Source: a virus. From it: a stretch of 64,000 bases of DNA. A program made the position numbers and the translations under genes. The notes under the pieces are model-generated. The model worked only from the letters and a program-made list of their open reading frames with translations. It ran no database searches and was not told the origin of the DNA. Positions 14,399 through 60,455 of this stretch are shown here, in pieces. The number at the start of each line of letters is the position of its first letter. Positions within the stretch are counted from its first letter, which is position 1. The stretch lies in the IMG/VR virus record IMGVR_UViG_3300042485_001041, positions 17,219-81,218 of that record. One strand, 5' to 3'.

Positions 14399-16438
14399 AT
14401 GTCGTTATTTTCATTTAAGTTAGCCGAAGAGTTTGTGGCTCCGTATCGATCAAAGCAAGCGCCATTTGGATACCGAGATGCTGCTGGTAACTCCGTAGGT
14501 GAGATCACTTTCTTGCGTACCTATTCACGCCTTAAGGCAGATGGTACGAAAGAAACTTGGGTCGATGTCTGCGAACGAGTCATCAACGGTATGTACTCGC
14601 TTCAAAAGGATCACGCCAAAGTAAGTCGCCTACCTTGGTCAGATGCCAAGGCAGCCTCATCTGCTAAAGAAGCCTTTGATCGACTCTTCCAACTTAAGTG
14701 GACACCACCTGGCCGAGGACTATGGGTAATGGGAACTTCGCTTGTCAATGAACAGCGCAACTCCGCAGCCCTTCAAAACTGCGCCTTCGTATCTACGGGA
14801 TCAATGACCAAGAACGATCCAGCAAAGCCATTCGCATTCCTAATGGAAGCATCAATGCTCGGAGTGGGCGTTGGCTTTGACGATAAGGGTGCAGATAAAG
14901 AATTTAACATCTATGAACCACAAGGAGAATACACCTATGACATCCCAGACACCAGAGAAGGATGGGTCGAGTCAACCGCAGCCCTCATCAATTCCTTCCT
15001 ACGACCAGATTCGAAAACTCCAGTATTTGGTTACGAAGCGATCCGCCCAGCAGGTGAACCGATCAAGACGTTCGGTGGAACCGCAGCGGGAGCAGACCCC
15101 TTAATTCGTTTACATAACTACATCACTAAGATGTTTACTGGTCGTGCTGGCCAGAAACTAACTCGTGTAGATATTGCTGACATCGGAAACATGATTGGTG
15201 TTTGCGTTGTATCAGGCAACGTTCGTAGATCAGCAGAGTTACTTATTGGTCGTGTAGATGACCAAGACTTCCTTAACCTAAAGAACGCAGAGAAGTTCCC
15301 AGAGCGTAACTCTTACGATCCTGCTAACCCAGGTTGGGCTTGGATGTCTAACAATTCTGTGGCTGTTAATGTCGGAGATAACCTAGATAACATCATCGAT
15401 GGCATCGCTCGTAATGGTGAGCCAGGAGTTATCTGGATGGACATCTCTAAGCAATATGGTCGCCTTGCTGACCCAATCAACAACAAGGACTGGCGCATTG
15501 CTGGTTACAACCCCTGTGCTGAACAATCACTTGAATCTTACGAGTGTTGTACTTTGGTTGAAACTTACTTAAACCGTCACGAGAACCTTGAAGACTTCAA
15601 GCGCACTTTAAAGTTTGCTTATCTTTACGCTAAGACTGTTACTTTACTTCCAACTCACTGGGAAGAAACTAACGCCATCATGCAGCGTAACCGCCGTATT
15701 GGTACATCTGTATCTGGTGTTGCTAACTTCGCAGATAACAAAGGACTTCCAATTCTGCGTCAATGGATGGATGAAGGTTACAAAGTTATCCAAGGCTACG
15801 ATAAGACTTACTCCGAATGGCTTGGTGTTCGTGAGTCAATCAAGATGACTACTGTTAAGCCATCAGGCACAGTAAGTATCTTGGCTGGTGAAAGTCCAGG
15901 AGTTCACTGGACTGTTGGTGGTAAGTATTTCTATCGCGCTATTCGTTTTGCTAATAGCGATCCGATGCTTCCGCTATTCCAGATGGCTAACTACCGAGTA
16001 GAACCCGCATCGGAATCGCCCGAAACAACTTCTGTTGTATTTTTCCCAGTAAAGTCTGAGGCTAAAAGAAGTGAGAAGGATGTAAGTATCTACGAGAAGA
16101 TGGCACTCGCTGCTACTGCTCAACGATACTGGTCTGACAACTCTGTATCTGTAACTATCTCTTTTGATCCAGAGACAGAAGCCTCGGCTATTGGTACGGC
16201 TTTACATATGTACGATGGTCAACTAAAGACTGTTTCGTTCTTGCCTTCTGGTAATGCTATCTACCCACAGATGCCTTACACACAGATTACTGAAGAAGAG
16301 TATGAAGCAGAGGGAGTAATGAAACTATTCCCTATCGATCTTGCTGGTGTCTATGCTGGTATGGCTTCTGATGCTATTGGTGAGGCTTACTGTACGACTG
16401 ATGCTTGCGAAGTGAAGTTAATTAAAGATAACCAGTAA
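14399..16438 (+). CDS. nrdJ: Class II (B12-dependent) ribonucleotide reductase
   Basis: PPGRGLW, NC, GNVRRSAE, NPCAE, TVKPSGT and C-terminal CTTDAC. Confidence 0.93.
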   Translation: MSLFSFKLAEEFVAPYRSKQAPFGYRDAAGNSVGEITFLRTYSRLKADGTKETWVDVCERVINGMYSLQKDHAKVSRLPWSDAKAASSAKEAFDRLFQLKWTPPGRGLWVMGTSLVNEQRNSAALQNCAFVSTGSMTKNDPAKPFAFLMEASMLGVGVGFDDKGADKEFNIYEPQGEYTYDIPDTREGWVESTAALINSFLRPDSKTPVFGYEAIRPAGEPIKTFGGTAAGADPLIRLHNYITKMFTGRAGQKLTRVDIADIGNMIGVCVVSGNVRRSAELLIGRVDDQDFLNLKNAEKFPERNSYDPANPGWAWMSNNSVAVNVGDNLDNIIDGIARNGEPGVIWMDISKQYGRLADPINNKDWRIAGYNPCAEQSLESYECCTLVETYLNRHENLEDFKRTLKFAYLYAKTVTLLPTHWEETNAIMQRNRRIGTSVSGVANFADNKGLPILRQWMDEGYKVIQGYDKTYSEWLGVRESIKMTTVKPSGTVSILAGESPGVHWTVGGKYFYRAIRFANSDPMLPLFQMANYRVEPASESPETTSVVFFPVKSEAKRSEKDVSIYEKMALAATAQRYWSDNSVSVTISFDPETEASAIGTALHMYDGQLKTVSFLPSGNAIYPQMPYTQITEEEYEAEGVMKLFPIDLAGVYAGMASDAIGEAYCTTDACEVKLIKDNQ

Positions 16439-16461
16439 CGCTTCTGGTATTGCTTTGGCTT

Positions 16462-16493
16462 AAGCCCTGCCTTCTGGTAGGGCTTTTGCTTTT
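16462..16493 (+). terminator. Intrinsic terminator after nrdJ
   Basis: AAGCCCTGCC-TTCT-GGTAGGGCTT hairpin followed by T-rich tail, at the convergence of the two blocks. Confidence 0.7.
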
Positions 16494-16619
16494 GCTATGG
16501 CTTTGGTTCTAACTTGTCTACATAACTACCGATTGGCTCTGCGTGTTCATCACAGCAGAGTGAGCCATCTACCCAGATGTACCATTCAACTGGTTGTAAG
16601 CAATCCTCAACATAGCAAT

Positions 16620-17012
16620 TCATGCTTCTGGTATCGCTTCACAAACAAACCCACTATGAGAAGCAAGGATTCGCTCACATAAGACGCTATTTGCCATCAT
16701 CTTGCCCTGCTTCTTGGTAAGTCCTTTGGCTGGGTGGGTATCTAAGATGTTGTTACAGGTAGGACAGACAAGCACAAAGTTATTTTTTAGCGGGGGTCTG
16801 TCGCCGTAGGTCTGTATCTTCCAACCCAACTGAACTAACTTGCCCCAGAACAGTTCTTCTACCTCAATGTCGGCAAAGGGCTCACTCCAGTCAAGAGGTA
16901 ACTCTTCCTGATGCCAACCCTCTTGGTAGGACTTACTTCGAGAGTGCTCTTGCTTTTCGTAGTGCTTCTGCTTCAACTCCTGCTGATGTTGCTTGTACGG
17001 ATCTCTGATCAT
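16620..17012 (-). CDS. Hypothetical Zn-binding protein
   Basis: CPTC...H...C; GGGGG RBS-like stretch upstream. Confidence 0.6.
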   Translation of the reverse strand: MIRDPYKQHQQELKQKHYEKQEHSRSKSYQEGWHQEELPLDWSEPFADIEVEELFWGKLVQLGWKIQTYGDRPPLKNNFVLVCPTCNNILDTHPAKGLTKKQGKMMANSVLCERILASHSGFVCEAIPEA

Positions 17013-17067
17013 TTAATGCCCCCTAACTAACTAACTTCACCTGGCAGCCAGGTAGAGTTACTTTGGA

Positions 17068-17101
17068 GATAGCCCCCCGTCATTTCTGACGAGGGGCTAT
17101 C
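17068..17101. terminator. GC-rich hairpin downstream of the lysozyme-like gene
   Basis: GATAGCCCC-c-CGTCA...TGACG-a-GGGGCTATC inverted repeat. Confidence 0.6.
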
Positions 17102-17106
17102 CCGAT

Positions 17107-17697
17107 CTACTGCGTTTTTGCTTCTGCTATGGCTTTTGCTTTTGCTTTCGCTATTGCTTTGGCTTTGACTTCAGGGAACTTTGCCAGCCATGCTTTCGTT
17201 CTGGCTGTCATACCTTTCCACGAAGCCCAGTTTTCGCCCCCGTTGCTCATGTGATAAGCAATTTGGGCGTTAATCACAGGGTTTAGCAATTCGGCATTAG
17301 ATTCTAAGCCAAACTTTTCTCTGCGATCTGCGCCTAACCCACCGATCATATTGATCTGGAATACTCCGTATGAACTGTCACCAGTCTTACGATTTCCGTT
17401 ATAGGCGAGTGGTCGACCATTTGATTCTTTCTTCGCTACTGCCCATGCTTCTCGTAGGTCTTTCCCTTCGAACCCAACCGCATTTAGTAGTTCTACTAAC
17501 TGGTGGTCAGTCAAAGAGTCCGAGTTATGATACTTGGACAGGATTACTTCTTCGTATTGCTTTACTGCTACTAACGCTTCGGCTCTGGTCGGAGTAAAGG
17601 CTGGCGGTAAACCGACAACCCCATTAAGTACCACGAACATCGCTGTAAACAGCGAACCGAATACGATCTTGCCTTTTCGAGTTAGTTTCATCATCAC
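17107..17697 (-). CDS. Membrane-anchored lysozyme-like/transglycosylase protein
   Basis: N-terminal TM; AVAKKES catalytic Glu; SYGVFQIN; Lys/Ala tail. Confidence 0.85.
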   Translation of the reverse strand: MMMKLTRKGKIVFGSLFTAMFVVLNGVVGLPPAFTPTRAEALVAVKQYEEVILSKYHNSDSLTDHQLVELLNAVGFEGKDLREAWAVAKKESNGRPLAYNGNRKTGDSSYGVFQINMIGGLGADRREKFGLESNAELLNPVINAQIAYHMSNGGENWASWKGMTARTKAWLAKFPEVKAKAIAKAKAKAIAEAKTQ

Positions 17698-18971
17698 TCC
17701 AAATAGTCATTGACAGTTTCACCTGCTTTTGACTGGTTGTGACGAAGGCGATGTAAGTATCGCTCTGTCGTCTGTATTGATTGGTGACCTAGTCGCTCTT
17801 TGACCTCATGGACATCTACCCCGTTTTTTAATAACTGGGTAGCGTTTGCGTGCCTGAGATCGTGAGTTCTAGGCTTCCAATCTATGCCTGACTTGGCTAT
17901 TGCTTTGTTCCAGATCGTTCTCCATACATCTCGTGGAAGGTGACTCGATTGATCGATAAACCCCTGTTGCTTCTGGTATGGCTTCTGGTATGGCTTTGCC
18001 TTTTGCCTATGCTTTCGCACCGACTCTCGGCAATCACCACACCTACAACCGCCATGCGTGTAGGCATACAGAGTTCCATGCTGGAACTGTTTTCCGTCTT
18101 TTGCGAATGGTCGCTCAGACATTTTATTCTCTCCACGAGAAGCCTCTATTTTACTTTCTATGGTCACTAGTGACTTAGGGAAGAGCAGATCATCTTTTGC
18201 TAGGGCTTTAGCCTTGACATGAGCCTTAATCTCATGTAACAGGGCTTGGCTTAACATAAGGCTTCGCTTATGACCTGACTTGGTCGCATCGACTACCAAG
18301 AATCGACTGCTATGGCTTTTGCCTAGATCGCTCACTCTTCGCTGTACGAACACCTCTCCCGAAGTGAAGTTGATGTCTTTGACTCGCAACTCGGTGGCTT
18401 CACCGAATCGGCAACCCGAAGCGATCAAGAATTGCGCGAATAATTGGGCATTCTTATTCGGTAAATGCTTAATTATGGACTTGAACTGCTCTGGCTCTAA
18501 TACCTGCTGTAAGTCGGCATGGCGTTGCTTAATCCTTATCCCATGAGTCGGGTTACTGGCTAACTCACCCGTCTGGACTAGTCGCTTAAAGGCAGACCCC
18601 AGAGAGGCTTTGACTTGCCTCAGCGTTGCTGGTTGAACCCCACTTAACTTCAACTCTTCCAGCAGGTGAACTAACTTTCGGCGGTCAATGGAAGTTACTT
18701 TGAGATGCCCGATCTTTGGCAGGGCATACTGCCTAAGCACCGACTCGTAACCCTTACGGGTGATAGGCATGAGATCAGCAACGGGCAACCACTCTTCGAT
18801 ATAGGTGGATAGGGTCATAGAAGCCCTAGAAGCCCCCTCTGAATCCGATCGCTCGGCTTGTAAGGCGTGGTATTCGGCTTCGGTTTTCGTATCCCAAGTG
18901 CCAGCAGAGAGCCGTTTACCGCCCTTGCGATAATAGCCAGTCCAACGATCTTTACGCTTTACGGCATACAT
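17694..18971 (-). CDS. int: Tyrosine recombinase/integrase with inserted Zn finger
   Basis: SGCRFGE, TKS, HDLRH, LGHxSxxTTERY catalytic residues. Confidence 0.93.
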   Translation of the reverse strand: MYAVKRKDRWTGYYRKGGKRLSAGTWDTKTEAEYHALQAERSDSEGASRASMTLSTYIEEWLPVADLMPITRKGYESVLRQYALPKIGHLKVTSIDRRKLVHLLEELKLSGVQPATLRQVKASLGSAFKRLVQTGELASNPTHGIRIKQRHADLQQVLEPEQFKSIIKHLPNKNAQLFAQFLIASGCRFGEATELRVKDINFTSGEVFVQRRVSDLGKSHSSRFLVVDATKSGHKRSLMLSQALLHEIKAHVKAKALAKDDLLFPKSLVTIESKIEASRGENKMSERPFAKDGKQFQHGTLYAYTHGGCRCGDCRESVRKHRQKAKPYQKPYQKQQGFIDQSSHLPRDVWRTIWNKAIAKSGIDWKPRTHDLRHANATQLLKNGVDVHEVKERLGHQSIQTTERYLHRLRHNQSKAGETVNDYLE

Positions 18972-18996
18972 AACTAACTTCCCCCTTCCGCTGCGT

Positions 18997-19043
18997 GTTA
19001 CTCGTGAGTAACCTACTGCTGAGTAATGTTACTGGTCAGTAAC
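18997..19043. promoter_or_regulatory. Three tandem 16-bp palindromic operators GTTACT-N4-AGTAAC
   Basis: 18997-19012 and 19028-19043 match exactly, 19012-19027 is degenerate; directly upstream of int. Confidence 0.7.
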
Positions 19044-19051
19044 TTAAAGGT

Positions 19052-19089
19052 CAAAAAATAGCCCCTAGACCAGAACCGATCTAGGGGCG
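19052..19089 (-). terminator. Intrinsic terminator ending the leftward early operon
   Basis: GCCCCTAGA...TCTAGGGGC stem followed on the minus strand by TATTTTTT. Confidence 0.75.
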
Positions 19090-19198
19090 TAAAGGCTAAG
19101 GCTTAGGGAATCTGCTCTGAAGTAACTTGCGGTCGGTCGCGGGAAAGTTACTTCACGCTCGAAGTAACTTTGGGCGGATACCTTCAGCAGAGTTAGAG

Positions 19199-19396
19199 TT
19201 ACTTATCCAGTTCAATCTCGATCTGGTTTGCTCTCTTACTCTGCCATTCGGTGATCGTTTCTTGCTTCCAGATAGGCGTTCGCCCCATGTAGCGATCTGG
19301 CTCTGGAAGGGTGCTTCGCTTTCGATAGGTGTAAATCGTTTCCACCTTTAGACCCGTTAAGGTAGCGATGTCGGTACTTGTTAGCCATTCGCTCAC
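19199..19396 (-). CDS. Excisionase/AlpA-like HTH protein
   Basis: WLTSTDIATLTGLKVETIYTY...LPEP...W, close to int. Confidence 0.8.
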   Translation of the reverse strand: MSEWLTSTDIATLTGLKVETIYTYRKRSTLPEPDRYMGRTPIWKQETITEWQSKRANQIEIELDK

Positions 19397-19869
19397 TTAG
19401 TTTCACCATTCTTTGATTTAGTTTCATCTGGATTTTTTCCCCACTTCAATTCTCTAGTTTGGGCATCTGCCCATAGATAGGGCGATGAAATACCTACTTT
19501 GAAATCGTAATACTCTGGTGCTTTACGCTTTAAGTTGCTCTGGTGCGATAGGTGTAACACTTCATCACCAACCCAGAATGGAAGTCCTGTATCTGGAAGT
19601 AACGCATGAACTGCCACGAATCTAGCGAGCATCGTGTCCTGATAGCCCCTAGCACGCCACTCCATACAGATAGCCATTCCGTATTCGCATAGAGCGCGTT
19701 CATAACCGCGCCACATTTTAACAGCAGGGTGATTAACCCAACCTTCGCTATTACCGAGAAGAGTATTAAGAATCTGCCACGCTTCAACGCGCTGTTTACC
19801 TAATCGCCTGTAATCAAGTGCCATAGCAGTTTTACCGAACTCGGCATAAGGCATGAATGTATTAACCAT
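19393..19869 (-). CDS. Pyrimidine-dimer DNA glycosylase (DenV-like, MSMEG_6728 family)
   Basis: TFMPY...LDYRRLGKQRVEAWQIL...NHPAVKMWRGYE...SHQSNL. Confidence 0.85.
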   Translation of the reverse strand: MVNTFMPYAEFGKTAMALDYRRLGKQRVEAWQILNTLLGNSEGWVNHPAVKMWRGYERALCEYGMAICMEWRARGYQDTMLARFVAVHALLPDTGLPFWVGDEVLHLSHQSNLKRKAPEYYDFKVGISSPYLWADAQTRELKWGKNPDETKSKNGETK

Positions 19870-20031
19870 TTATTTTCTCCATGTAATTTCGCCATGAGTA
19901 TCGCATTCGAACTCGATAATAGTTTCTTCTCCGCGTAAGTAAGTACCGCAATTTTCGCAATAACCTTCATCTACAAGATGTGGCATAGTCCAACCGCATA
20001 CATCTGAGCAATCGCATTCTTCGGTTTCCAT
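19870..20031 (-). CDS. 53-aa acidic Cys-rich protein (not in ORF track)
   Basis: Own translation METEECDCSDVCGW...CENCG...CDTH; fills the gap. Confidence 0.55.
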   Translation of the reverse strand: METEECDCSDVCGWTMPHLVDEGYCENCGTYLRGEETIIEFECDTHGEITWRK

Positions 20032-20033
20032 AA

Positions 20034-20303
20034 TTAAAACTCCTTCGCTACTGATTGATACTTGTGGCGTTGCTCTCTGCGCTTTAAGTTCTGGCGTTCA
20101 CCTTCGGTAAGTCCACCGAAGATCCCGTAAGCGACATTATTAGTTAGCGCGAAAGTAAGGCACGCATTCTTATCTGCTGGCTTACAACTGGCGCATAGTG
20201 ACTTTGCTTCGTGAATCTTTAAGTGTTCAGTCGGGTCTGGAAAGAATATATCTGGGTCATTAGCCGACTGACAGGGCGCATCTATGATCTCGTATCTAGC
20301 CAT
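20034..20303 (-). CDS. whiB: WhiB-family regulator (second copy)
   Basis: PCQ..DPDIFFP...AKSLCASC...CL...GIFGGLT..ER. Confidence 0.9.
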   Translation of the reverse strand: MARYEIIDAPCQSANDPDIFFPDPTEHLKIHEAKSLCASCKPADKNACLTFALTNNVAYGIFGGLTEGERQNLKRREQRHKYQSVAKEF

Positions 20304-20601
20304 TATCTTTGCCCTTCTTATAGTCGATGAATGTATCTAGCATCTCGCTTAACTCTTCTGGCGTTACTTCTGCTAGTCGAGTAAGAATCTCGATAACTGT
20401 AAGCATTCCCCAGATTAAGTATTCAGGGTCGAGTTCATGCTTTGCCATGATCTCGTTTAAGTGTTCATTAGCGATGTGAGTCTGAATCTCTTCTGGAAGA
20501 TGATCTTCTCGCTCTGACTCCAACTTAAATCCGCGACATAACTTCAAGAACTCGTTAGCAAGTTCGATTGAATTAACTCTTAATTGCTCTTCACTACTCA
20601 T
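20296..20601 (-). CDS. Hypothetical acidic protein
   Basis: RBS AAGGGG; overlaps whiB start. Confidence 0.65.
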   Translation of the reverse strand: MSSEEQLRVNSIELANEFLKLCRGFKLESEREDHLPEEIQTHIANEHLNEIMAKHELDPEYLIWGMLTVIEILTRLAEVTPEELSEMLDTFIDYKKGKDNG

Positions 20602-20740
20602 TTATTTTCCCCTTCTGTAAGTAAGTGCTTTCAATCTGACGCACTTGTAACCGAGTTAGTTCGAATTGATCTGCGACTGTTGCTAGTGACTTACCAGCAA
20701 GTCGAAGATCGACTATCTGTTTTTTTATTTCATCGTTCAT
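20594..20740 (-). CDS. 48-aa sigma-70 region-4-like HTH protein (not in ORF track)
   Basis: Own translation IVDLRLAGKSLATVADQFELTRLQVRQIE resembles the sigma4 HTH (TLxEVxxxFxVTRERIRQIE). Confidence 0.6.
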   Translation of the reverse strand: MNDEIKKQIVDLRLAGKSLATVADQFELTRLQVRQIESTYLQKGKINE

Positions 20741-20773
20741 AATAGGTATTCCATTCTCTAGGTAAATAAATAG

Positions 20774-20916
20774 TTAGTAGAGATCGCTCAGAAGTAGAAC
20801 GGGTGCGTGTAATAGGCTCGGACTCGAAAGTCGGTACAGCCCATTAATCTGATCAGATTTTCGTACACTCTTTTCAGTCTTATCGAAGTCTGCTAGGTGT
20901 GAACGATCTCTACTAA
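20774..20916 (-). ncRNA. Putative structured intergenic RNA A
   Basis: 13-bp closing stem TTAGTAGAGATCG/CGATCTCTACTAA; internal UUCG-loop hairpin on the minus strand (20821-20832). Confidence 0.55.
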
Positions 20917-20923
20917 TAATGGA

Positions 20924-21052
20924 ATCGAGCAGGGGCAGGTATAACTCTTTTCAACAGCGCGGAAAGTACGCTGAGGACTGTCATGGCTATCCTTCAAGGG
21001 TAAGGAGTGGGTCATAGAAGCCCAGTTAACCCCTTGTTTACCCCCACTCGAT
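20924..21052 (-). ncRNA. Putative structured intergenic RNA B
   Basis: Closing stem ATCGAG..GGGG/CCCC..CTCGAT with C-A mismatches (G-U on the minus strand) and three internal hairpins. Confidence 0.5.
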
Positions 21053-21057
21053 AAGTT

Positions 21058-21306
21058 TTATTCTTCTTCTGGCTCGCAATCGCAATCTTCTTCTGCGTGT
21101 TCATCGCAATTCCATTGGCAGTTTTCACCGACCCAATCGTTGACATGACCAACGCATACATCTAACGCATCGTCTGCGATCTCGTGTCCGTCTGCCATAC
21201 CTTTGAAGTCCGATGAATCCCACCATGTAATTACGATCTCTTCTTTGAGATCAGTTGCGTAAGTGCGATTAAGTATTTCGATCGCTTCTTTAACTGTAAC
21301 TATCAT
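21058..21306 (-). CDS. Hypothetical acidic protein
   Basis: Operonic ORF. Confidence 0.65.
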   Translation of the reverse strand: MIVTVKEAIEILNRTYATDLKEEIVITWWDSSDFKGMADGHEIADDALDVCVGHVNDWVGENCQWNCDEHAEEDCDCEPEEE

Positions 21307-21459
21307 TTATTTATCCAATCCGTAGCACTCGACCATTGATTTGAAGCAGTAATGATCGCCAACCCAGTTGATGTGGTTAACGATCGCACCAATAATTAGT
21401 AGAACGATGATCGAACTGATGATCGCTACTACCCAACCTAACTTAGTTAAATTATTCAT
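21307..21459 (-). CDS. Small membrane protein (start re-assigned to MNNLTK)
   Basis: Single TM helix; TAATG coupling to the HNH gene. Confidence 0.6.
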   Translation of the reverse strand: MNNLTKLGWVVAIISSIIVLLIIGAIVNHINWVGDHYCFKSMVECYGLDK

Positions 21460-22040
21460 TACGCAACCCTCTCTAGGTACATTCGGTATCTCCATGAGTT
21501 TCGTTCGATAAGAGTTTTCTCTTGGTGGCAACTAGCGCAACGAATCACGCACTTATTAATCTCGCGTTGGATTATGTGTGACGGGTAATTCTTTAAGACT
21601 CCGTTGCTGATGTCGAAAAGTTTTTTACCGCGCACATGGTCGAAGGTTGCTTGAAGCGGATTAATCATTCCGCAATCAACGCATGGCTTCTGGTAATAAC
21701 GAAATACAAGTCTGCGAGCAGGACTCTCTTTCGTTATGTGATTGTGCTTTTGTATCGCACTAACGCATGGTTTACATCTACCTTCTCGACTTGGTTTGCG
21801 CCCTTTGCGATTTGCTAATTGAAATGATGAAATTACTTTCACCTTCTCGCATGATGAACACTTGCGTTTGCCTTTGGCTTCTAGTGCTAATCGTTTAGCA
21901 GTTCGATCTGCCGAAGTTTTACGCTGAATAGACTGGCAACGCTTACACCTTGCGCGTTTTCCATACTTGCCGTCAACGAACTTATTAAACTCTTTGAGTG
22001 GCAAGTCCTTGAAGCAACCTAAGCAGTTTTTAGTACGCAT
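21459..22040 (-). CDS. HNH endonuclease with N-terminal Zn-finger repeats
   Basis: Two CxxC...CxxC units, then CVDCG...FDH...KCVIRCASCH. Confidence 0.8.
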   Translation of the reverse strand: MRTKNCLGCFKDLPLKEFNKFVDGKYGKRARCKRCQSIQRKTSADRTAKRLALEAKGKRKCSSCEKVKVISSFQLANRKGRKPSREGRCKPCVSAIQKHNHITKESPARRLVFRYYQKPCVDCGMINPLQATFDHVRGKKLFDISNGVLKNYPSHIIQREINKCVIRCASCHQEKTLIERNSWRYRMYLERVA

Positions 22041-22748
22041 TTAATCCCAATCAGTAGTTAGTCCTGCGAGAGAGAGAGTTTTATACTTTAGATCGTCATG
22101 GTTAGACGGCGTTACATAACCAACCACGAATCTACTTCCAGTAGTCGCAACGATCACGCCTCTACGCAATCGACCATGAGCCTGAACCCATACCCTGTCA
22201 CCAACGAAGGCGTTATATGGTGGCTTCGCGTTCTGCCAACTACCTTCGTATTGTTCACCAGCAAGCGAGATCAGTTCATTTTTAATAGCGCGAATCTTTG
22301 AAAGTATCTCTAATTTATCTTTCGCCACTTTCATAGTTTTAGCCATTGATCTACCGCGACCGATACCGCACACCACCGCATGATGAGTTAGCCAATTTAA
22401 CTCTGCGTTATCATGCTTCGTGCCGATCTCCCACGCATACGCCGTATAAACATTTACTAGTTTAGTTTCACCATAACCACCAACCAGAGAAGCATCAACG
22501 CTGTAATGAGAAGTTAACGGGTTGCCATTAACATCTAAAACTTCTCGCATTGAGTATCTAACTTCGGTGATAATTAGTTGAAAGTGATCTTTGAAAGTTT
22601 CTTCATGGAAGATAGTTTCAATAACTTTTATCTCGTGAGTTGTATCCATGAACTTGTAACTATCAGGCTGTCTGCGACCAGTCCATTCGTTAGTGTGGAA
22701 GTGATACTTCTCGTAGCACACTTTGAATCGATCTAAGAAAATACTCAT
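22041..22748 (-). CDS. Hypothetical protein (possible SH3-like C-terminus)
   Basis: Operonic ORF; VGDRVWV...GVIV. Confidence 0.65.
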   Translation of the reverse strand: MSIFLDRFKVCYEKYHFHTNEWTGRRQPDSYKFMDTTHEIKVIETIFHEETFKDHFQLIITEVRYSMREVLDVNGNPLTSHYSVDASLVGGYGETKLVNVYTAYAWEIGTKHDNAELNWLTHHAVVCGIGRGRSMAKTMKVAKDKLEILSKIRAIKNELISLAGEQYEGSWQNAKPPYNAFVGDRVWVQAHGRLRRGVIVATTGSRFVVGYVTPSNHDDLKYKTLSLAGLTTDWD

Positions 22749-23749: not shown

Positions 23750-23836
23750 ATTCGTTTCCCTTGTTAGTTGGTTAGGGGTGGAGTGGGGCAAGTTAGTACC
23801 AAGCCCCACCCCACCGAGTCACCTAGAGAGTGACAT

Positions 23837-25762
23837 TTAGTTTCGAACGAGTCTGCGAGTGATCGCGTACTTCACGATCTTTCGAGCCATTCCAATTAGA
23901 TCGAGTGGATTATTAATAACCGCACCGATCTCGCAACGATGTGAAGTTTCACTATCGAGAACGATCTGTTCGTTTGAATTGGGAATGTATGCGAACGCCG
24001 TTAACACGCCAGCACGAGCCATTCGATCGATCGCATCGTGAGTTTGCTTTAAGTCACCGCCCCATTCTCCGTCAGTAATGGCGAAGAAAATACGAACTGG
24101 TTTATCAGTTTCGGCAAGTAACTTAGTCGCGTACTTAACGGCTTGATCTGGCTCAGTACCGCCACCAGCACCAGCATCTCGAATCACGCCAGTTGCTTTA
24201 TCTTTTGCGCGATACAGCAGGTTAGTATCACTATTGAAAGTGATAACAGTTGTATTCGCATTGATCTTGTCGAGTGCGCGTTTAATTGCGTACATCGCCT
24301 TGTATGCCTTCTCTGCCTTATGACCAGACATCGAACCAGAGTTATCGAGAATGACTACGCATTCGATCTCGCAAGCATCTTCGATACCTTCATTCCATGA
24401 ATCGAAAACAGTTTCGATGTCCTCTCCACGCAAGTAACGCCCTGCGTGTAAGCGACCACTCGACTCGTAAGTTTCCCAAGCAGGGTCATACGATGATTTC
24501 AACCGCAACAGTTCACGAGCGAATGTTGCTGATGCTTCAACAGTTTTAGAATCAGGGCGAAGCGAATTAAATCGCTCTAACTCTGGCTCTTTAGCGTTAT
24601 TGGTAGCAAGAGAAGGTAAGCCACCAATCTGGCGCATGATGTCGCGGATTTCATCTGCGATCTCGGCACTAGTAAGAATGTCATTCAGAGTTGATTGAAG
24701 TAACTCTGCTAGTTCGTTACCGACTCCGTCAGAACTTTCATCGTTGATTTCATCGTCACCATAATCTTCGAACTCGACTTGATCGATGTCTAATTCGATA
24801 GTTGGTTTTGATTTCATCTTCTCTGCGAGTTCGGCATCGTCTGCCTGATCTAATTTAGAAGCACGATCTGAATCGCGCTTCTGTTGTTTAGGTGGTTGAG
24901 GGCGTGAAGCCATAGAGGACTCGATACCTTCGTGTGGGCGATTGCCATGACCGAATGGGTCATTGAGAATGACATTGAAATCGCCTTCTTTGCCCTCTCC
25001 AGCAGGTTTAACTTTGATCTGGGTGCTTCCACCTTCACCAGAGCCGTCACCGCTTCCAGAGCCGTCACCTTTGGGCAACAGCGTATGGAATCGCGCTATT
25101 AATTCTTTCCCTTTTTCAGTATCAGTAGGGAATACAAGTAAGCGATAAGCATCGACTATCTCGCATATTTCAGCGATATTTTCTTGCTCTGGATACGCAT
25201 TACGAGAGTTCGCTCTAATTTGAACAGGTAAGTATCTGCGACCACGAAGTAGCGGATACGAATTAACGAAGGCATCTGGCTTCTCTACGAAGTGAATCAG
25301 AATCGTAGAAGTAAACCAATCAACAGTTGAGGGATAGCGAGTAGTAAATAAAGTTTCTATTCGCTGATCTTCAAGTGCGTTATATGCCGAGAAGTAATTG
25401 TTATCTCTAACGAACTCGAAGATGTCTGAACCTTCTCGTGCTGTATAGAGAATGTGACTGATCTCGTGAAGATCAAGCCCTTTAAGTCCAGCGATTGATT
25501 TAGCATCATTTAGATCGCCAATTAATCGTGAATTAAAAGTTACTTCACTAGCACCAGAGTAAGCAGGTGAGTTCATCGATGAATGCTCGACCTTTACAGT
25601 CACCTTGCGGAAAGTGAATGCTGAGTTCACTCGACCGAATAAGTGACAGAAGCGTTCGATCTTCTGGCGATGTAGTTCTGCTTCATCGCGCTGGCGCATT
25701 AGCGCACCAGCATCTAGCCCTTGTAGAAGTTCATCTACTTGGTCATGTATTGAACCGCGCAT
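23837..25762 (-). CDS. vWA-domain protein with N-terminal HExxH domain (CobT-like)
   Basis: LHEISH...NALEDQRIE; MIDAS LDNSGSM, GGT, ITDG. Confidence 0.85.
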   Translation of the reverse strand: MRGSIHDQVDELLQGLDAGALMRQRDEAELHRQKIERFCHLFGRVNSAFTFRKVTVKVEHSSMNSPAYSGASEVTFNSRLIGDLNDAKSIAGLKGLDLHEISHILYTAREGSDIFEFVRDNNYFSAYNALEDQRIETLFTTRYPSTVDWFTSTILIHFVEKPDAFVNSYPLLRGRRYLPVQIRANSRNAYPEQENIAEICEIVDAYRLLVFPTDTEKGKELIARFHTLLPKGDGSGSGDGSGEGGSTQIKVKPAGEGKEGDFNVILNDPFGHGNRPHEGIESSMASRPQPPKQQKRDSDRASKLDQADDAELAEKMKSKPTIELDIDQVEFEDYGDDEINDESSDGVGNELAELLQSTLNDILTSAEIADEIRDIMRQIGGLPSLATNNAKEPELERFNSLRPDSKTVEASATFARELLRLKSSYDPAWETYESSGRLHAGRYLRGEDIETVFDSWNEGIEDACEIECVVILDNSGSMSGHKAEKAYKAMYAIKRALDKINANTTVITFNSDTNLLYRAKDKATGVIRDAGAGGGTEPDQAVKYATKLLAETDKPVRIFFAITDGEWGGDLKQTHDAIDRMARAGVLTAFAYIPNSNEQIVLDSETSHRCEIGAVINNPLDLIGMARKIVKYAITRRLVRN

Positions 25763-25772
25763 GGAGTCCTCT

Positions 25773-26642
25773 CTAAGCGTTCGCGTACTCGGTTGTAATG
25801 GACTCTACGGCTATGCCCAAGTCCTCTTTGATGTTGTAACCAGCACCTTCTAAGAGCATCTTTACAGCAGGTCGCTCTTCTTCGGTGAAGTTATTAGTAA
25901 AGATTTCGCACGCTAGATCGTATGACAATTCTTTCGAAATCTTCTCGAAAGTTTTTAGAATGCGAGATGTAATTGGAGTTTCGAAGATCGTTGCGTTATT
26001 GGAGTGTGAACCACTAGAAGATGTAGAGCGCATTCCGTAAGCAAGATCAAGCAGAGCAGGTGAAGCGATGTATTGACTTTCAACAGCGCGATCGAAATCG
26101 TAATGAAGTTTGATCTCGAAGCGATCTGCTAATTGCTCTGGTAGTGGTTGAGAGCCACGATAGTTTGGATTGAAGTCAGCGATGATTAATAGATCAGGGT
26201 GCGCCTTAATAACTTCGCCCTTGTGTCCTAGAAGCGTAATAACACGCGAGAAGTCCAGAAGTGGAAGTACGAAGTGTTTAGCGTTCTTGGCTAACTTATC
26301 GATCTCACCAAGATTGAGAATGCCACCATGACGAACTAAGTTTACGATCTGCGAATCGACCCACTCTAGTTTTCCATTTTCATCTGGCACATAAGAGCCT
26401 TGAAGTTCCGAAGCACTTAATGAATCGTTCGAAGGCACATTGTAATAAGGCAAGCCACGAAGCGAAGCGATGTATTGAGCGAATGAAGATTTACCAGTAC
26501 CAGAATGTCCGAAGTTAAGGATATTCATTTTGTTTTTGATTGCGTAATCTGCGATTGCGATTTCAGATACGCCAGCGAATGATCGTGGCACATAATGCGC
26601 CATTGAATCGAGCGAAGGTATAAATTGGTTGATCGTTGACAT
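25773..26642 (-). CDS. MoxR/CobS-like AAA+ ATPase
   Basis: GHSGTGKS Walker A; GGILNLGEID (variant Walker B); NPNYRG; LADRF. Confidence 0.88.
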   Translation of the reverse strand: MSTINQFIPSLDSMAHYVPRSFAGVSEIAIADYAIKNKMNILNFGHSGTGKSSFAQYIASLRGLPYYNVPSNDSLSASELQGSYVPDENGKLEWVDSQIVNLVRHGGILNLGEIDKLAKNAKHFVLPLLDFSRVITLLGHKGEVIKAHPDLLIIADFNPNYRGSQPLPEQLADRFEIKLHYDFDRAVESQYIASPALLDLAYGMRSTSSSGSHSNNATIFETPITSRILKTFEKISKELSYDLACEIFTNNFTEEERPAVKMLLEGAGYNIKEDLGIAVESITTEYANA

Positions 26643-26701
26643 GTTATTCCGTTTCTCTAGGTGATTGGTTTGGTTTTATTTTCTTACTTATTAAGTTGTA
26701 G

Positions 26702-26842
26702 TTACGAATGGATAGTGAGTAGCAAGTAACTCGGCATGGAATGGGTTGGGCTTCGCGGTCACTACGGCTAAAGATCAGCGGTAGCGAAAGGATTGTCGCG
26801 CCATGTGATGTCTGGATACAGGTGGTCACTATCCATTCGTAA
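26702..26842 (-). ncRNA. Putative structured intergenic RNA C
   Basis: Perfect 17-bp closing stem TTACGAATGGATAGTGA/TCACTATCCATTCGTAA enclosing nested stems with G-U pairs on the minus strand. Confidence 0.6.
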
Positions 26843-26845
26843 TTC

Positions 26846-27118
26846 TTATTCATAGTCAGTTGTAACAGCATCTACATTCTTAGCGATTATTTTAGAAGCC
26901 AGATATACATCTTCTAACTCACTCGCTAATTCTTGGAATTGATTAAAGATCGCGCACTCTTCATCGATCGCTGGACATAACTTGTCCATGATTGATTGAA
27001 GAAGTTCGGTCACCTTCTCTGGTGCTGGTTCATCTCGATCTAACGCGTTCTCTAACGCCATTCCAAGAATGGTGCTGGCGAGTCCGAGTTCATCGAGTGT
27101 GAAAGTAATCTTTGCCAT
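26846..27118 (-). CDS. Hypothetical acidic protein
   Basis: RBS AAGGGG. Confidence 0.7.
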   Translation of the reverse strand: MAKITFTLDELGLASTILGMALENALDRDEPAPEKVTELLQSIMDKLCPAIDEECAIFNQFQELASELEDVYLASKIIAKNVDAVTTDYE

Positions 27119-27132
27119 TTATTTATTTCCCC

Positions 27133-27819
27133 TTACTGATAATGAGAAGCGCACCACTTGCCCATGCCAGCCACTACGGACTTTTGAAGGGTTAAGGTGC
27201 GGTGACAATGAACGCAAGTGCCAGTAGCGATACCGAATGCGGAAGCATCAGTAAGTGATAGTCGATCAGTTGCTTTAAGAGTTGCCAACACTTTTGAATT
27301 AAGAGTCCAAGATTTATTTATTGGGTCATACTCTAAAGCGAAGAGTCGATCACTATTTCGAAGTTTGCGTACTGAGTAATAAGTTTCATTAACTCGATAC
27401 GCACCGACAGTCGCTTCGATGATTACTTCTAACTTTGGAAGCATAACTAAATAAGTGATAAGCACTTTCGCTTGATCGCGTGTTAGTTGGTGATACGAGT
27501 CAACCGAATAGTGAGTAGTGATCTCAGTAAGTTTCTCTTGCGCCTTCTGGCGAGTTTGAAGTAAGAGATCGATGTATCCAGACTGCTTCTCACTAATTCG
27601 ATCTTCAACCTTCTTAGGACAAGCAAGTAATTGCTCGATGATGCGAGAGGCGTGCTTCTTGTTTACCTGCTCGGCGTTAGCGATCTCGAACTCATGTATG
27701 CGTTCATCTAACAGGCGTTGAATAAATCGTGCCTGTGCTGGTGAGCAGTATTTAACAGCGAACTCGCCGTACTGATTGCTGGCAGGTGCGCCAGCAGGTT
27801 TGCCTTTAGTAATTGACAC
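27133..27819 (-). CDS. Hypothetical protein with SxxQ repeats and C-terminal Zn ribbon (DUF6011-like)
   Basis: SPAQARFI / SEKQSGYI repeats; CVHCHRTLT...S...GMGKWC. Confidence 0.7.
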   Translation of the reverse strand: MSITKGKPAGAPASNQYGEFAVKYCSPAQARFIQRLLDERIHEFEIANAEQVNKKHASRIIEQLLACPKKVEDRISEKQSGYIDLLLQTRQKAQEKLTEITTHYSVDSYHQLTRDQAKVLITYLVMLPKLEVIIEATVGAYRVNETYYSVRKLRNSDRLFALEYDPINKSWTLNSKVLATLKATDRLSLTDASAFGIATGTCVHCHRTLTLQKSVVAGMGKWCASHYQ

Positions 27820-27821
27820 TT

Positions 27822-28106
27822 CTATTCCCCCTCTTCTGAGTTACACCAAGCATCTAGCCGTAGTGACTCGATAATTTGACTAGCGATCATGTCCGTTCTA
27901 CCTTCACGAGTTTTTACCTTCTCTGGTAGATCAATTAAGCGATCGTAATCGCCTTCATTAATAGCGTTGATTGAAGCGATAGCAACTGGAAGCATGATTA
28001 GTGGTACTGGTGGATAGCAATTTGATGTTAAGTGAATTGTTAATTGCTGTTCGATTGAATTAACGAACTCGCCAGAAGCAAGTTCGATTGCGTGAATAGA
28101 ACCCAT
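27822..28106 (-). CDS. Hypothetical protein
   Basis: RBS GAGGGG; HLTSNCYPPVP. Confidence 0.7.
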   Translation of the reverse strand: MGSIHAIELASGEFVNSIEQQLTIHLTSNCYPPVPLIMLPVAIASINAINEGDYDRLIDLPEKVKTREGRTDMIASQIIESLRLDAWCNSEEGE

Positions 28107-28193
28107 TTAGTTATTCCCCTCTAGTGATTGAAAAGTTAATGCGATTGCTGTACCGATTATTGAAGCGATGATTGCGAGTAAAAAGATAGTCAT
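28107..28193 (-). CDS. 28-aa hydrophobic peptide (not in ORF track)
   Basis: MTIFLLAIIASIIGTAIALTFQSLEGNN; fills the gap exactly. Confidence 0.5.
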   Translation of the reverse strand: MTIFLLAIIASIIGTAIALTFQSLEGNN

Positions 28194-28486
28194 TAGATCG
28201 CTCTCCTTACATAACCTTGATGCTTCGAAGTTGTAGTTGAGTATTTGACATTCGGAATAGTCCAACCGAACTTTCCATGCCATGCGATTGGAGTGCCATA
28301 CGAATACACGATGTAATCGGGGAACTCAGTTGCCAGTTGAAGTGCCAAGTGACTATCTAAGCGACCAGTAGAAGGCGAGAACTCTTCACAATTAGGTGAG
28401 ATCACATAACCAGAGAAGTTGTTACCTTGAAATGCCACGCGATTATGAATTAGTACGCCAGCCTTTTGGTTTGATGATTTAGTCAT
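28193..28486 (-). CDS. Hypothetical protein, paralog of 8950-9267
   Basis: YSYGTPIAWHG...TTSKHQGYVRRAI. Confidence 0.75.
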   Translation of the reverse strand: MTKSSNQKAGVLIHNRVAFQGNNFSGYVISPNCEEFSPSTGRLDSHLALQLATEFPDYIVYSYGTPIAWHGKFGWTIPNVKYSTTTSKHQGYVRRAI

Positions 28487-28650
28487 TAGTTATTCCCCTT
28501 TAGTTTTCCAGTAAAAGATAATTCGATGATGAATGCTCGGTTATATGCCAAGAAGTTTTCAAGATCGCCAATAGTTTCGAAATCCTCTTTACGATTAAAA
28601 ATCTCTTTGCGATTCCATTGATTAACGATGCGATAAGTTGCTGTAATCAT
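28486..28650 (-). CDS. 54-aa hypothetical protein (not in ORF track)
   Basis: MITATYRIVNQWNRKE...; TAATG coupling at both ends. Confidence 0.55.
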   Translation of the reverse strand: MITATYRIVNQWNRKEIFNRKEDFETIGDLENFLAYNRAFIIELSFTGKLKGNN

Positions 28651-28817
28651 TATTTAGTACCTGCGATCTTCAAGTTCTTGATTGCGTTGAAGTCGAAAGT
28701 TGAGTAATAACGAGTTCCGTCATTTAGTAGTAAGTCGATGCTCGAAGGTGTGATGCGACCACGAGCGATGATTTTGCCGTCTTTATCTATGAACACTTGA
28801 TCGGTATTTTTCTTCAT
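28650..28817 (-). CDS. 55-aa hypothetical protein (not in ORF track)
   Basis: MKKNTDQVFIDKDG...; RBS AAGGGA. Confidence 0.55.
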   Translation of the reverse strand: MKKNTDQVFIDKDGKIIARGRITPSSIDLLLNDGTRYYSTFDFNAIKNLKIAGTK

Positions 28818-28907
28818 TTCGTTTCCCTTTGTTTTTACTGGTGAAATTGATTATCGATTTGATAACCACCACATCGCACCGATTTACTCGATGCGATGTA
28901 GAAGCGA

Positions 28908-29252
28908 TCAGATAGTTAGAAGTCGAAGTGCTGAGTGAATTGATTTACCGAGTTGTAACGCACGCTGTTGCGCCTCTTCTGTCAGTTCAACTCGATTGCC
29001 GTCACGAACTGAATTGGGAAAGTAACCCTTGCCAGCGCACAGAAGAGAAGTCCAGAGAAGATCGAGTTCGCTCTGGGTAAGTGTGATCGTTGCGGTTGGT
29101 TCATCGGTAGCAATAGCCGACCAGCACCATGAGCAGAAGCCGTCACGAGTTGCGATTACATCAGTTCTAGTTGCTTGAAGATGATTAATACAATGAAGGC
29201 TCTGGCACTTTTGAATTGAAGGTGCTGTTGAAGTAATTTCGCCTAGTTTCAT
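28908..29252 (-). CDS. First ORF of the leftward operon, Cys-rich (start re-assigned to MKLGEI)
   Basis: CxxxxC...CSWC; purine-rich RBS upstream. Confidence 0.6.
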   Translation of the reverse strand: MKLGEITSTAPSIQKCQSLHCINHLQATRTDVIATRDGFCSWCWSAIATDEPTATITLTQSELDLLWTSLLCAGKGYFPNSVRDGNRVELTEEAQQRALQLGKSIHSALRLLTI

Positions 29253-29292
29253 TTTCTTTCCATTCCAGTAATGATTAATTGAATACATCGAG

Positions 29293-29985
29293 TTATGTAT
29301 TCACCCCACTAGTAACCAGAGATAGATCGCTGTCTATTTACCAGTTACTAGTAGAGAAAACACATAAGCAGATAATTACTAATTGAGTTGCCCAGTTCGT
29401 TCACTATGCTTCATGCGGATTGGTTACCGATTGCGCTGTTATTAACAGATAGTCCATGTGAACTGGATTCAATCTCCATAATTATTTTCCCTAAGCCATA
29501 TCTGCTATTCACAATTAATTTCTTAATCGTTGGAGTTGTTTACATTTAATGAAGTTAATCGCTCGTTATTAGTAGTAATCGCTAGTTAATAAATAGTGGA
29601 TTCTATTTATTCATTCATCGCGTAGTAATAAGTTTTCGCAATTAGATTTTCATCTCTTGAATTATTCGCTCGTTATTCGTAATCGCATTCACTAATAGCA
29701 TCTAGTAGATAGATCGCTTTCGCCTTAGTTAGTTATTAATCGAGTTCATTGGTACAGAACACAATTAAAAGAATGCGATTCGTAATCGCAGATTTTCTTA
29801 GCCTCTATTTAATTAAGTTATTTAGTAACGATCGCCAGTTGAGTACCGCGCCTTAGCGTTGTTAGTTCGGGTCAGTTCACCGACCATTACTAAATAACTT
29901 TGAGCATTTTTCACTTCTGATTAATAAACCGATCAGTTGCCCCTAGAGGATTCTGAAAAGATCGATCGTTGGTCGCGTGCGCTAT
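29293..29985 (-). ncRNA. Putative large (~700 nt) structured non-coding RNA
   Basis: No ORF of 60 aa or more; multiple long-range stems (see findings); in the stem examined in detail the mismatches read as G-U on the minus strand. Confidence 0.6.
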
Positions 29986-29991
29986 GGGAGA

Positions 29992-30021
29992 AATGTACCA
30001 CTCAGCCCGATCAGTTGATAA
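29992..30021 (-). promoter_or_regulatory. Candidate leftward promoter (extended -10 TGGTACATT; weak -35 TTATCA)
   Basis: Minus-strand TGn-TACATT at 30000-29992, just upstream of the structured region. Confidence 0.4.
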
Positions 30022-30540
30022 CAGGCTCGATCTATTTACTCCGCGTTGCCGATCTAATTGTTAAGCCGAATGAGCGTGCGTGGGATTGAGCGTAAATACA
30101 CCTGAGAGGGCGTAGAAGGGGTCTAAGAGCCGAGTACCCCCAGTTTGAAGGTAATCACCCCAGAGCAGGTGAGATCGTGGCTCATAGGGCGCGTGTGGAG
30201 AGGGGTGTTTATGCGTTAATGTCCGAATTGCCCGATATATGTAAGTCCACGCCGACAATGTGAAAGTTAGATAGTTAGATGCGCCGATGCGCCAGAGCCA
30301 GATGAAATTGCGCCGATGTATTTTTTTTCTCAGTATTAACAATTTAATCACTAAGAGAGAGTAGAGAAGATAAGAAGAAAACAATTAAGAGGGAGATGTA
30401 ATTAATTAATGATTAGTAGAAAAGATTATCCATTAGTTGATCGAGTTGATTCAAACAGCAGATTTAATTTATTGATGTGGTTAGCGAAGTACCAGATGAA
30501 TAACCCCGATGTAGTAGAGATAGAGATTGATTCACATAAC

Positions 30541-30829
30541 TATTAATAAATAATAATAAATAATAAATGATCGATGTGATGATGTGATCGATGTGAACTC
30601 GAATAGCAGGTGGTTAGTACCTGATAACAACTGGGTGGCACACCTGACAGTCTGGTGTTACGCGCACAGCCACGCCACTTGCCAGAGCAGTAGCCGAAGA
30701 TCGTGTCACCAAGATTGTCACCAAGTTAGTTAATCAATAACTATTTACGCTCATGTTAACTAGTTCGCACCTGACTAGTAATCAGGAGTAATTGTTAACA
30801 CCGACCCCCACCCCCTACCCCACCCACCC
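30541..30829. repeat. Low-complexity repeats: TAATAAA units, GATCGATGTGA x2, GTCACCAAG x2 and a C-run
   Basis: Read directly from the non-coding divergence point between the leftward and rightward blocks. Confidence 0.7.
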
Positions 30830-30922
30830 TTAATCGCACGCACGCAAGTGCCGAGCCAGGTGTCAGACACGGTTGACGACTTTTACGCTGAGGCAGTGCG
30901 GATTTTAAGCCATAATCGCCAT

Positions 30923-31531
30923 ATGCCCGCTCACAGCGTCTGCCGCACCTGCGGAAAGAAGATTAAGCAAGAAGGCTCCACTTGGAGTTCTCATTTGGGC
31001 GATAAGTGCTGGGGCAAGGGCACCCACAACCCCGTTCACACCGTTATCTCAGAAGGCTTAAAATCGGCCCCAGTATCAGTTCCTAGTCGTTTGCTTAATG
31101 AAACCTTGTTTCGTGGGTTGCCAGGTACTAAGTTGGAGACTCCACTTGGAATGCACTGGTCATCTGTATCGGGGCTTGACCACGTTTCTGGTTATTCGGG
31201 AGGAATAGGTAGTGGCGCTAGTCTATTTTCTGGCGGAGAAGGTAAAAAGGGCGAGAAGTCAACTATCATTCACGCTAAGGTAAACAACCGAGCAATCATC
31301 AACCCTCGCTCATCAGAGGGTAAGAAGATGGCTGGTCGTCATCAAATTTGGGGCGGAGGAGCCCCTGAGTACGAAGAGACGGTTCGCCCTGGTGCAAACG
31401 TTGAAGTAACTAAGTTAACTCGTGTACGTAACGTTACCGATGCCTCTCATGACGAATCTGGTAAGTACACTCCAGCGGTAACAAAGCAACGAGAGATCCG
31501 TTACAAGAAACCAAGACAGGTACAAGCATAA
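30923..31531 (+). CDS. ADP-ribosyltransferase-like protein with N-terminal Zn finger (start re-assigned)
   Basis: CRTCG...H..C; LFRG...GMHWSS...EYEETV; CATAAT 6 nt before ATG. Confidence 0.65.
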   Translation: MPAHSVCRTCGKKIKQEGSTWSSHLGDKCWGKGTHNPVHTVISEGLKSAPVSVPSRLLNETLFRGLPGTKLETPLGMHWSSVSGLDHVSGYSGGIGSGASLFSGGEGKKGEKSTIIHAKVNNRAIINPRSSEGKKMAGRHQIWGGGAPEYEETVRPGANVEVTKLTRVRNVTDASHDESGKYTPAVTKQREIRYKKPRQVQA

Positions 31532-60452: not shown

Positions 60453-60455
60453 TAT

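Follow-up and report, generated by a model that had tools for sequence, protein, structure and literature searches.

The DNA analysed here, called the window throughout, is a stretch of 64,000 nucleotides corresponding to bases 17,219-81,218 of an 81,218-bp virus contig from IMG/VR (IMGVR_UViG_3300042485_001041); all coordinates are given in window numbering. It contains a block of about 15 kb which, by exact counts, is free of TGCA, GGCC and ACGT (15682-31065) and which encloses a stricter zone (18991-30855) where none of 15 short words of the type II restriction kind occurs. The window is actinophage DNA, since it encodes a WhiB protein and its closest cultured relatives, as judged from terminase, portal and capsid, are Streptomyces myophages. 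The phage, whose genome measures about 81-97 kb and has a gene set of the contractile-tail type, belongs to an uncultured freshwater actinophage family, and it recurs across the lake-water metagenomes of many studies. The contig is classed as linear and is about 81% complete, with both of its own ends inside tail genes. A megablast search of GenBank phages with the block gave no match, and a tRNA scan of the window found none.

Gene content of the block

Nearly all genes of the window lie on the plus strand, the sole exception being a leftward block at 16,620-30,384. Most of it is an operon (19393-30384, minus strand) that is transcribed leftward and inward and comprises about 20 genes, the majority of them small. 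Its annotated members, all on the same strand, are a DUF6011 protein (27133-27819), an AAA_5 ATPase (25773-26642), a VWA protein (23837-25762), an HNH protein (21459-22040), the WhiB protein (20034-20303) and a DenV-like glycosylase (19393-19869); four further members are small acidic proteins with isoelectric points of 4.0-4.6 (27822-28106, 26846-27118, 21058-21306 and 20296-20601). A Protein Atlas search with the DUF6011 protein gave viral DUF6011 clusters and no others. Near the start of the arm, about 770 bp (29289-30060) are without a convincing open reading frame and contain several inverted repeats, with no Rfam match; Rfam searches of the whole 15-32 kb region returned no family at E<=0.1.

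The operon ends in a strong hairpin resembling an intrinsic terminator (19061-19088, minus strand), with a 12-bp stem holding 7 GC pairs and a T run. It is followed by a distal unit on the same strand (16620-18971), which encodes a tyrosine recombinase (17694-18971), an SLT lysozyme-like protein (17107-17697) and a 130-aa protein. The recombinase scores highest with models of Xer and integron integrases, though short of their cut-offs, with the catalytic domain matched in two stretches; it may serve integration or dimer resolution, and none of the relatives showed a prophage copy flanked by host DNA. On the left, the distal unit is bordered by the rightward ribonucleotide reductase gene (14399-16438, plus strand). 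On the right, a non-coding junction (30385-30855) separates the operon from the divergent arm, whose first rightward open reading frame spans 30848-31531 on the plus strand.

Short words absent from the block

The absence of TGCA, GGCC and ACGT had been proposed in an earlier sequence-only reading of this DNA, and the exact counts show a pattern stronger than was claimed. Within 15,690-31,060 the three words occur 0/0/0 times, against 62.4/31.1/29.9 expected under a second-order Markov model. They are frequent on both flanks, as that reading had also stated, with densities of 4.4/1.8/2.8 per kb. The gap extends over 15,682-31,151 for TGCA, 15,150-31,065 for GGCC and 15,220-31,181 for ACGT, the outermost flanking sites being at 15681 and 31152, 15149 and 31066, and 15219 and 31182, respectively; elsewhere in the contig, the longest gap for any of the three is at most 3.1 kb.

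A k-mer screen added further words that are missing from the block only: GCNGC, GGWCC, CCWGG, CASTG, ACSGT, GGAGC, CACGG, GAGAC and CAATTG. At least 12 words are purged besides the three tetramers, and the set used for all pooled counts comprises 15 words (ACGT, GGCC, TGCA, GCNGC, GGWCC, CCWGG, CASTG, ACSGT, GGAGC/GCTCC, CACGG/CCGTG, GAGAC/GTCTC and CAATTG). Pooled, they reach 20-30 sites per kb in the flanks, while in the 11.9 kb between 18,991 and 30,855 their number is 0, against about 280 expected. Over the block as a whole, CCWGG and GCWGC are as rare as had been reported, at 0.38 and 0.25 per kb versus 1.6 and 2.5 per kb outside. Outside the block, restriction-type words are mildly depleted, with observed/expected ratios of 0.6-0.9 (0.64-0.74 for the rest of the genome).

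The deficit is not a consequence of the encoded proteins. When synonymous codons were shuffled among the 23 block genes, keeping the protein sequences and the codon usage of the block, three groups of the words were expected at 86+-7.6, 62+-6.7 and 104+-8.7 sites, or about 250 in all, versus 0, 0 and 0 observed. Moreover, on the coding strand each non-palindromic word is as depleted as its reverse complement, which shows that double-stranded DNA, and not message or protein, is under constraint. Thus, selection on double-stranded DNA excludes at least 15 short words of the type II restriction kind from this contiguous arm, and from it alone.

A second class of words is banned everywhere: AGCT and CCGG do not occur at all in the whole 81,218-bp contig, versus about 295 and 88 expected. 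By contrast with the banned words, GATC, TCGA and CGCG had been described as abundant in the block, and in absolute terms they are (121, 114 and 47 sites); however, they are not enriched, and since the Markov observed/expected ratios are close to 1 (about 0.7-1.1) their abundance is compositional. The dinucleotide signature of the block is also distinct. CpG rho is 1.13 in the block of the window and 0.75 outside it, and CA/TG are lower in the block; in the genomes G000 and G002-G005, CpG rho is 0.64-0.75 outside the block, with an excess of CA/TG, versus 0.8-1.13 inside, where CpG is at or above expectation. The raised CpG and lowered CA/TG are probably a by-product of banning many other words. 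Another local peculiarity, far from the block, is the very high density of GTAC in 57264-63754 (25-34 per 2 kb), a compositional effect of tail proteins rich in Gly-Thr (GGT ACN).

Shape and edges of the block

The two edges of the block differ. On the side of the divergent promoters, profiles of 11 relatives' genomes show the pooled density falling to 0 from about 20 per kb across a single bin of 100 bp; in these genomes the step always lies 66-74 bp outside a conserved palindromic element present in single copy. In the window, the first site beyond this edge is at 30,856, and the first rightward open reading frame has a normal or high density of 33-34 words per kb from its 8th base onwards. 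The far edge fades over some 3-5 kb: in 13 genomes the density rises from 0.2 to 4.9 per kb across the last 3 kb of the block, and it reaches normal values of 10.6-12.8 per kb in the reductase gene.

In the window, the first site beyond the far edge of the zero zone is at 18990, so that the zone stops about 70 bp past the terminator at 19,061-19,088; in the relatives the endpoint varies, from within the recombinase gene to beside the reductase gene. Between 16.4 and 19.0 kb only 4 sites of second-tier words are found, every one in a spacer. Farther left, the last ~750 bp of the reductase gene are still inside the zone without the three tetramers, as part of the graded distal edge. The coincidence with the leftward region that had been noted from the sequence holds for the most part, but the left limit falls within the 3' end of the rightward reductase gene, and the block is therefore not strictly the same as the leftward gene block.

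Two other observations were made in this region. A 12-16-nt direct repeat (CTGCTATGGCTTTTGC-like) occurs nine times over 16356-18322, in both coding and non-coding DNA; these copies could represent a putative protein-binding array. At 15800-16320, in the 3' end of the reductase gene, Logan contigs from a number of lake samples are broken or branched, which indicates co-occurring strains recombining at the transition from conserved to variable DNA.

Conservation among relatives

The VWA protein of the block was used to retrieve 33 related IMG/VR loci, among which 12 include both flanks; five near-complete genomes were available. Synteny across the block and both flanks was found in the related loci (n=33). 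All five near-complete genomes contain exactly one purged block each, of 12.4-16.6 kb, and a zero zone of 9-12.5 kb is present in 12 of the 12 loci with both flanks. A boundary shared by the relatives, on which the sequence-only reading had made its proposal depend, was therefore seen in every relative examined with both flanks.

The core proteins of these relatives are close (terminase 90%, reductase 83-89% identity), while the block proteins are the most diverged of the genome, with a median identity to four relatives of 49-56% versus 69-79% for the core; protein identity across relatives sharing the purge is 40-65%. Selection must be ongoing, because at the divergence seen in the block the sites would otherwise have drifted back. 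The purge is thus the result of ongoing regional selection on DNA and not a foreign insert.

Which words are banned changes from lineage to lineage. TGCA, banned in the genome of the window, is at expectation in G003; GTAC and ATAT are block-banned in other lineages, and GTNAC and GANTC in G002 only. The genome-wide absence of AGCT and CCGG is common to the relatives except G004, which keeps CCGG, even over-represented in its block (observed/expected 2.0), and some lineages lack GATC or CGCG throughout the genome. Such a lineage-variable list is the mark left by an arms race in which the restriction repertoire keeps changing. A match of the banned words with methylated motifs was sought in the Lake Biwa methylome paper, in which single-molecule real-time sequencing detected no methylated motifs in acI-type Actinobacteria; with none detected there, it gave no match. 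Actinomycetia phage DSL-LC01, whose reductase is 78% identical, has a different architecture and no regional block; ATAT and TTAA are absent from its genome as a whole.

In one clade of relatives, an HNH homing-endonuclease-like gene lies just outside the sharp boundary (L004:5299-5958, L033:4107-4766 and L003:4319-4843). This insert is rich in banned words and is not present in the window.

The junction and the predicted genome end

The sharp edge is marked by two conserved elements on the plus strand. One is the palindrome GTTAAC-N7-CCTGAYTANTAATCAGG-N7-GTTAAC (30757-30800), found once per genome, which encloses a hairpin (30770-30786) with a 5-bp stem and a 7-nt loop (C/T-T-AGT-A-A/G) similar to a tRNA anticodon arm. 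It is followed by a GACCCCC...TTAA...CCAGG element (GACCCCCC..TTAA..CCAGG; 30803-30856), conserved in 14 relatives, which coincides with the sharp edge of the purge. The non-coding junction in which they lie (30385-30855) is itself free of all 15 words.

The position of these elements can be compared with a phage of known ends. LuckySocke, a Streptomyces phage, has a 114.6-kb linear record whose terminal repeat, direct and exact, is 344 bp long (1-344), with the first gene at 356. With the map of the window phage opened at 30,848, 33 of its genes are collinear with LuckySocke, and the right end of LuckySocke is occupied by a leftward terminal gene block, whose gene 218 is homologous to the DUF6011 protein. 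Searched against the whole of LuckySocke on both strands, the family profile of the junction gave its best match at 299-389, spanning the inner end of the repeat (344|345), with E=0.011, and its second-best match was the other copy of the repeat. The first banned word thus appears where, by homology, LuckySocke passes from repeat to unique sequence, and a short terminal repeat is therefore predicted within 30,385-30,855. By this homology, the element at 30803-30856 would be the boundary between the short terminal repeat and unique sequence, and the purged block is predicted to be the right-terminal arm, transcribed inward. By analogy with the geometry of LuckySocke, the junction is also expected to hold the inward promoters; a promoter scan was uninformative, with fewer consensus matches than in shuffles. 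The expectation that a genome end should map near the block is supported by homology with a cultured relative of known ends, which would place the end at the block edge.

Other candidate ends were set aside. A read-cut signal at 30539-30568 proved to be an AT-rich tandem repeat. A complete tRNA-Gly(GCC) lies about 140-1750 bp outside the hairpin in L010, L018 and L019, and contig L016 breaks within a tRNA-Gly(GCC); a prophage border at the junction, suggested by the tRNA-Gly of three relatives, was rejected, the DNA beyond the tRNA being phage genes. The contigs of L005, L012, L016, L017 and L020 end 0-630 bp from the hairpin, and these ends were not counted as evidence of a physical end in view of the hypervariability of the region and the adjacent tRNA.

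A proposed leading early arm and its alternatives

The findings can be brought together by proposing that the block is the leading early arm, comparable to those of T7 and T5, of a linear genome with a short terminal repeat, exposed to the host before anti-restriction functions act; on balance, we consider this reading probable. A regional ban pays only if exposure is regional, because one cut anywhere kills a single infecting genome. The genes of the arm all point inward from the junction, and the polar shape of the purge, abrupt at the end and gradual at the far side, would be an indirect sign of the order of entry. According to this proposal, the junction end would enter first, as the anatomy suggests, and the arm would be transcribed, from promoters adjacent to the end, by the host RNA polymerase, which may help to pull the DNA in, as in T7. 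The products of the arm would include a broad anti-restriction function, candidates for which are the four small acidic proteins, the DUF6011 protein and the AAA_5/VWA pair. The remaining genome would be exposed only after this function acts, and for that reason could keep its sites. The words banned genome-wide (AGCT and CCGG, with GATC or CGCG in some lineages) would be those cut by enzymes that escape the anti-restriction function.

A more specific form of the proposal, which we regard as possible but put forward only tentatively, is that the early arm encodes a broad-spectrum inhibitor of type II restriction and that entry is slow, polar and coupled to transcription in a contractile-tailed actinophage. 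Such a putative inhibitor would have to neutralise at least 10 specificities (GGCC, ACGT, TGCA, GCNGC, CCWGG, GGWCC and others) and would leave AluI-like and HpaII-like enzymes unaffected.

Several points speak against a leading early arm. No known anti-restriction family was matched by the proteins of the block, and LuckySocke itself has no block-specific purge. Homology between the junction and the end of the LuckySocke repeat is marginal (the E value of 0.011 given above), and one assembled contig bridges the junction, as expected for a collapsed short repeat and equally for a permuted genome. The ends of the window's own contig are assembly breaks, in a contig only about 81% complete.

The main rival is regional protection by DNA modification, or more generally by a shield in cis: the whole genome would enter together, with all but the early arm covered either by base modification, for example a 7-deazaguanine introduced by a TGT/DpdA-like enzyme encoded beside the block, or by co-injected DNA-coating proteins, and the arm perhaps left bare so as to be readable by the host RNA polymerase, its sites being avoided by sequence. 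This would account for the distinction between genome-wide and block-only bans, and the different dinucleotide signatures of the two compartments would agree with it. Two genes ahead of the block there is indeed a gene (12721-14226, plus strand) labelled queuine tRNA-ribosyltransferase by PHROGs only (phrog_887, E=2.8e-59), with a ParB-C-like protein nearby. However, its product has no match in Pfam, including the TGT family, in NCBIfam or in the PDB, and a homologue is also present in LuckySocke, which has no purge. A search of the contig, which is about 81% complete, for the QueC, TGT and GTP cyclohydrolase I families gave no match, so that a DpdA with a preQ0 gene set was not found in it. 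Neither the graded far edge nor the step at the predicted genome end is predicted by such a shield, and we know of no modification that spares one 12-kb arm; overall, we judge this explanation unlikely. A similarly low probability, slightly below that, is given to selection tied to the early transcription unit and not to position in the entering DNA; the agent, which would read short words and need not be classical host restriction, would act on DNA only during its early transcription, or on a replication or recombination intermediate specific to the arm. In its favour, the zero zone of the window extends from the divergent junction as far as about 70 bp beyond the operon terminator, and the arm genes are all co-oriented. 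Yet the end of the zone varies in the relatives with no tie to a terminator, the non-coding junction upstream of the operon is purged as well, and most of the banned words, which vary between lineages, are palindromic or else classic type II/IIS sites, as would be expected for a changing restriction repertoire.

The two remaining explanations had been raised in the sequence-only reading, and neither fares well. On the model of T5 or SPO1, the block could be a long direct terminal repeat, in which case each genome would carry two copies that the assembly had merged into one. The terminal repeats of T5 and SPO1 are of similar size and hold small early genes, and the 12-16 kb and small early genes seen here resemble them. 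The Logan contigs of the probable source run, however, show no twofold step in depth: a 6.7-kb contig inside the block has a depth of 10.2 and the junction-spanning contig of 12, against 10.7 for the flank contig. This equality, although measured at contig level, argues against a T5-like long repeat, and the repeat of the cultured relative is only 344 bp; the terminally repeated segment is accordingly a very improbable description of the block. Least credible of all is a mosaic segment that came from a phage with a different host history and carried the avoidance pattern of its donor. The distinct word usage and dinucleotide signature of the block would fit such an origin, as would the branching of the lake-metagenome assembly graphs near its left edge, a mark of strain-level recombination. 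Nevertheless, the block is syntenic in 33 of the 33 loci and purged wherever both flanks are present, at 40-65% protein identity and without patchy presence, and drift would restore the sites at far less divergence; the banned sets are specific to each lineage, and the boundary is at the same conserved element everywhere.

With the leading early arm as the favoured reading, the family offers an unusually clean natural case of restriction filtering only part of a genome, across abundant uncultured lake phages. The purge pattern would serve as a sequence-only predictor of the leading genome end and of the position of the physical end, and the banned words would predict restriction specificities circulating in unculturable hosts. 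The small early proteins make a short candidate list for a broad anti-restriction function. If the inhibitor reading is true, the division of the words into those banned only in the block and those banned genome-wide reveals which restriction enzymes the uncultured host population has, as well as the range of the inhibitor.

Comparison with known systems

The closest cultured phages are the Streptomyces myophages BRock, LuckySocke, GiJojo and Alone3, with 52-53% identity in the large terminase, 60% in the portal and 62% in the capsid. The LuckySocke group shares with the window phage a leftward block at the right end beside a short terminal repeat (a predicted one in the window phage), a homologous DUF6011 protein within that block, and, at the repeat's inner end, a comparable GACCCCCC..TTAA element. 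Unlike the window phage, LuckySocke has 53% G+C, about 30 tRNAs and an ArdA-like gene, and no block-specific loss of 4-bp palindromes. The ArdA-like gene (LuckySocke gene 197; L058:31871-32542) lies just before the right-terminal leftward block, and its homologue was not found in the window.

The absence of AGCT and CCGG throughout, and of GATC or CGCG in some lineages, resembles the genome-wide avoidance known in phages; here, however, a second, regional tier is added on top. Regional tiers have been described elsewhere. In T7-like phages (Autographiviridae/Murciavirus), the motifs of type I restriction matter only in the early-injected region (PMC12455610); T5 first-step-transfer DNA, as cited in that paper, is free of EcoRI sites, which the remainder carries under the protection of pre-early functions; and, in conjugative plasmids, the leading region, again as cited there (PMC12455610), is the first to enter, is depleted of restriction targets and is rich in anti-defence genes. 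In this last case the plasmid DNA enters single-stranded by conjugation, whereas here the carrier is a phage.

The likeness to T5 consists of a segment, terminal in T5 and predicted to be so here, without restriction sites and with small early genes. The T5 segment, however, is located within a 10-kb terminal repeat and is delimited by a discrete injection stop, while in the window phage contig depth speaks against a long repeat and the far edge is graded. As in the T7-like phages, a short terminal repeat, here a predicted one, would be followed by an inward early arm, of about 15-19% of the genome, that ends at a terminator, and the region proposed to lead is hypervariable. The window phage differs from them in its contractile-tail-type gene set and its genome of about 81-97 kb, in the direction of transcription of the rest of the genome, which is toward the arm and not away from it, and in the nature of the ban, which concerns at least 15 type II-like words of 4-6 bp and not single type I sites; in addition, no homologue of Ocr, which goes with the early region of T7, or of ArdA was found in the window phage. 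The principle of a leading region is thus already established for T5 and the T7-like phages. What is new here is its extent (at least 15 words over 12-16 kb), its conservation across a whole family with word lists that change by lineage, its polar shape, and its occurrence in an uncultured family of freshwater actinophages.

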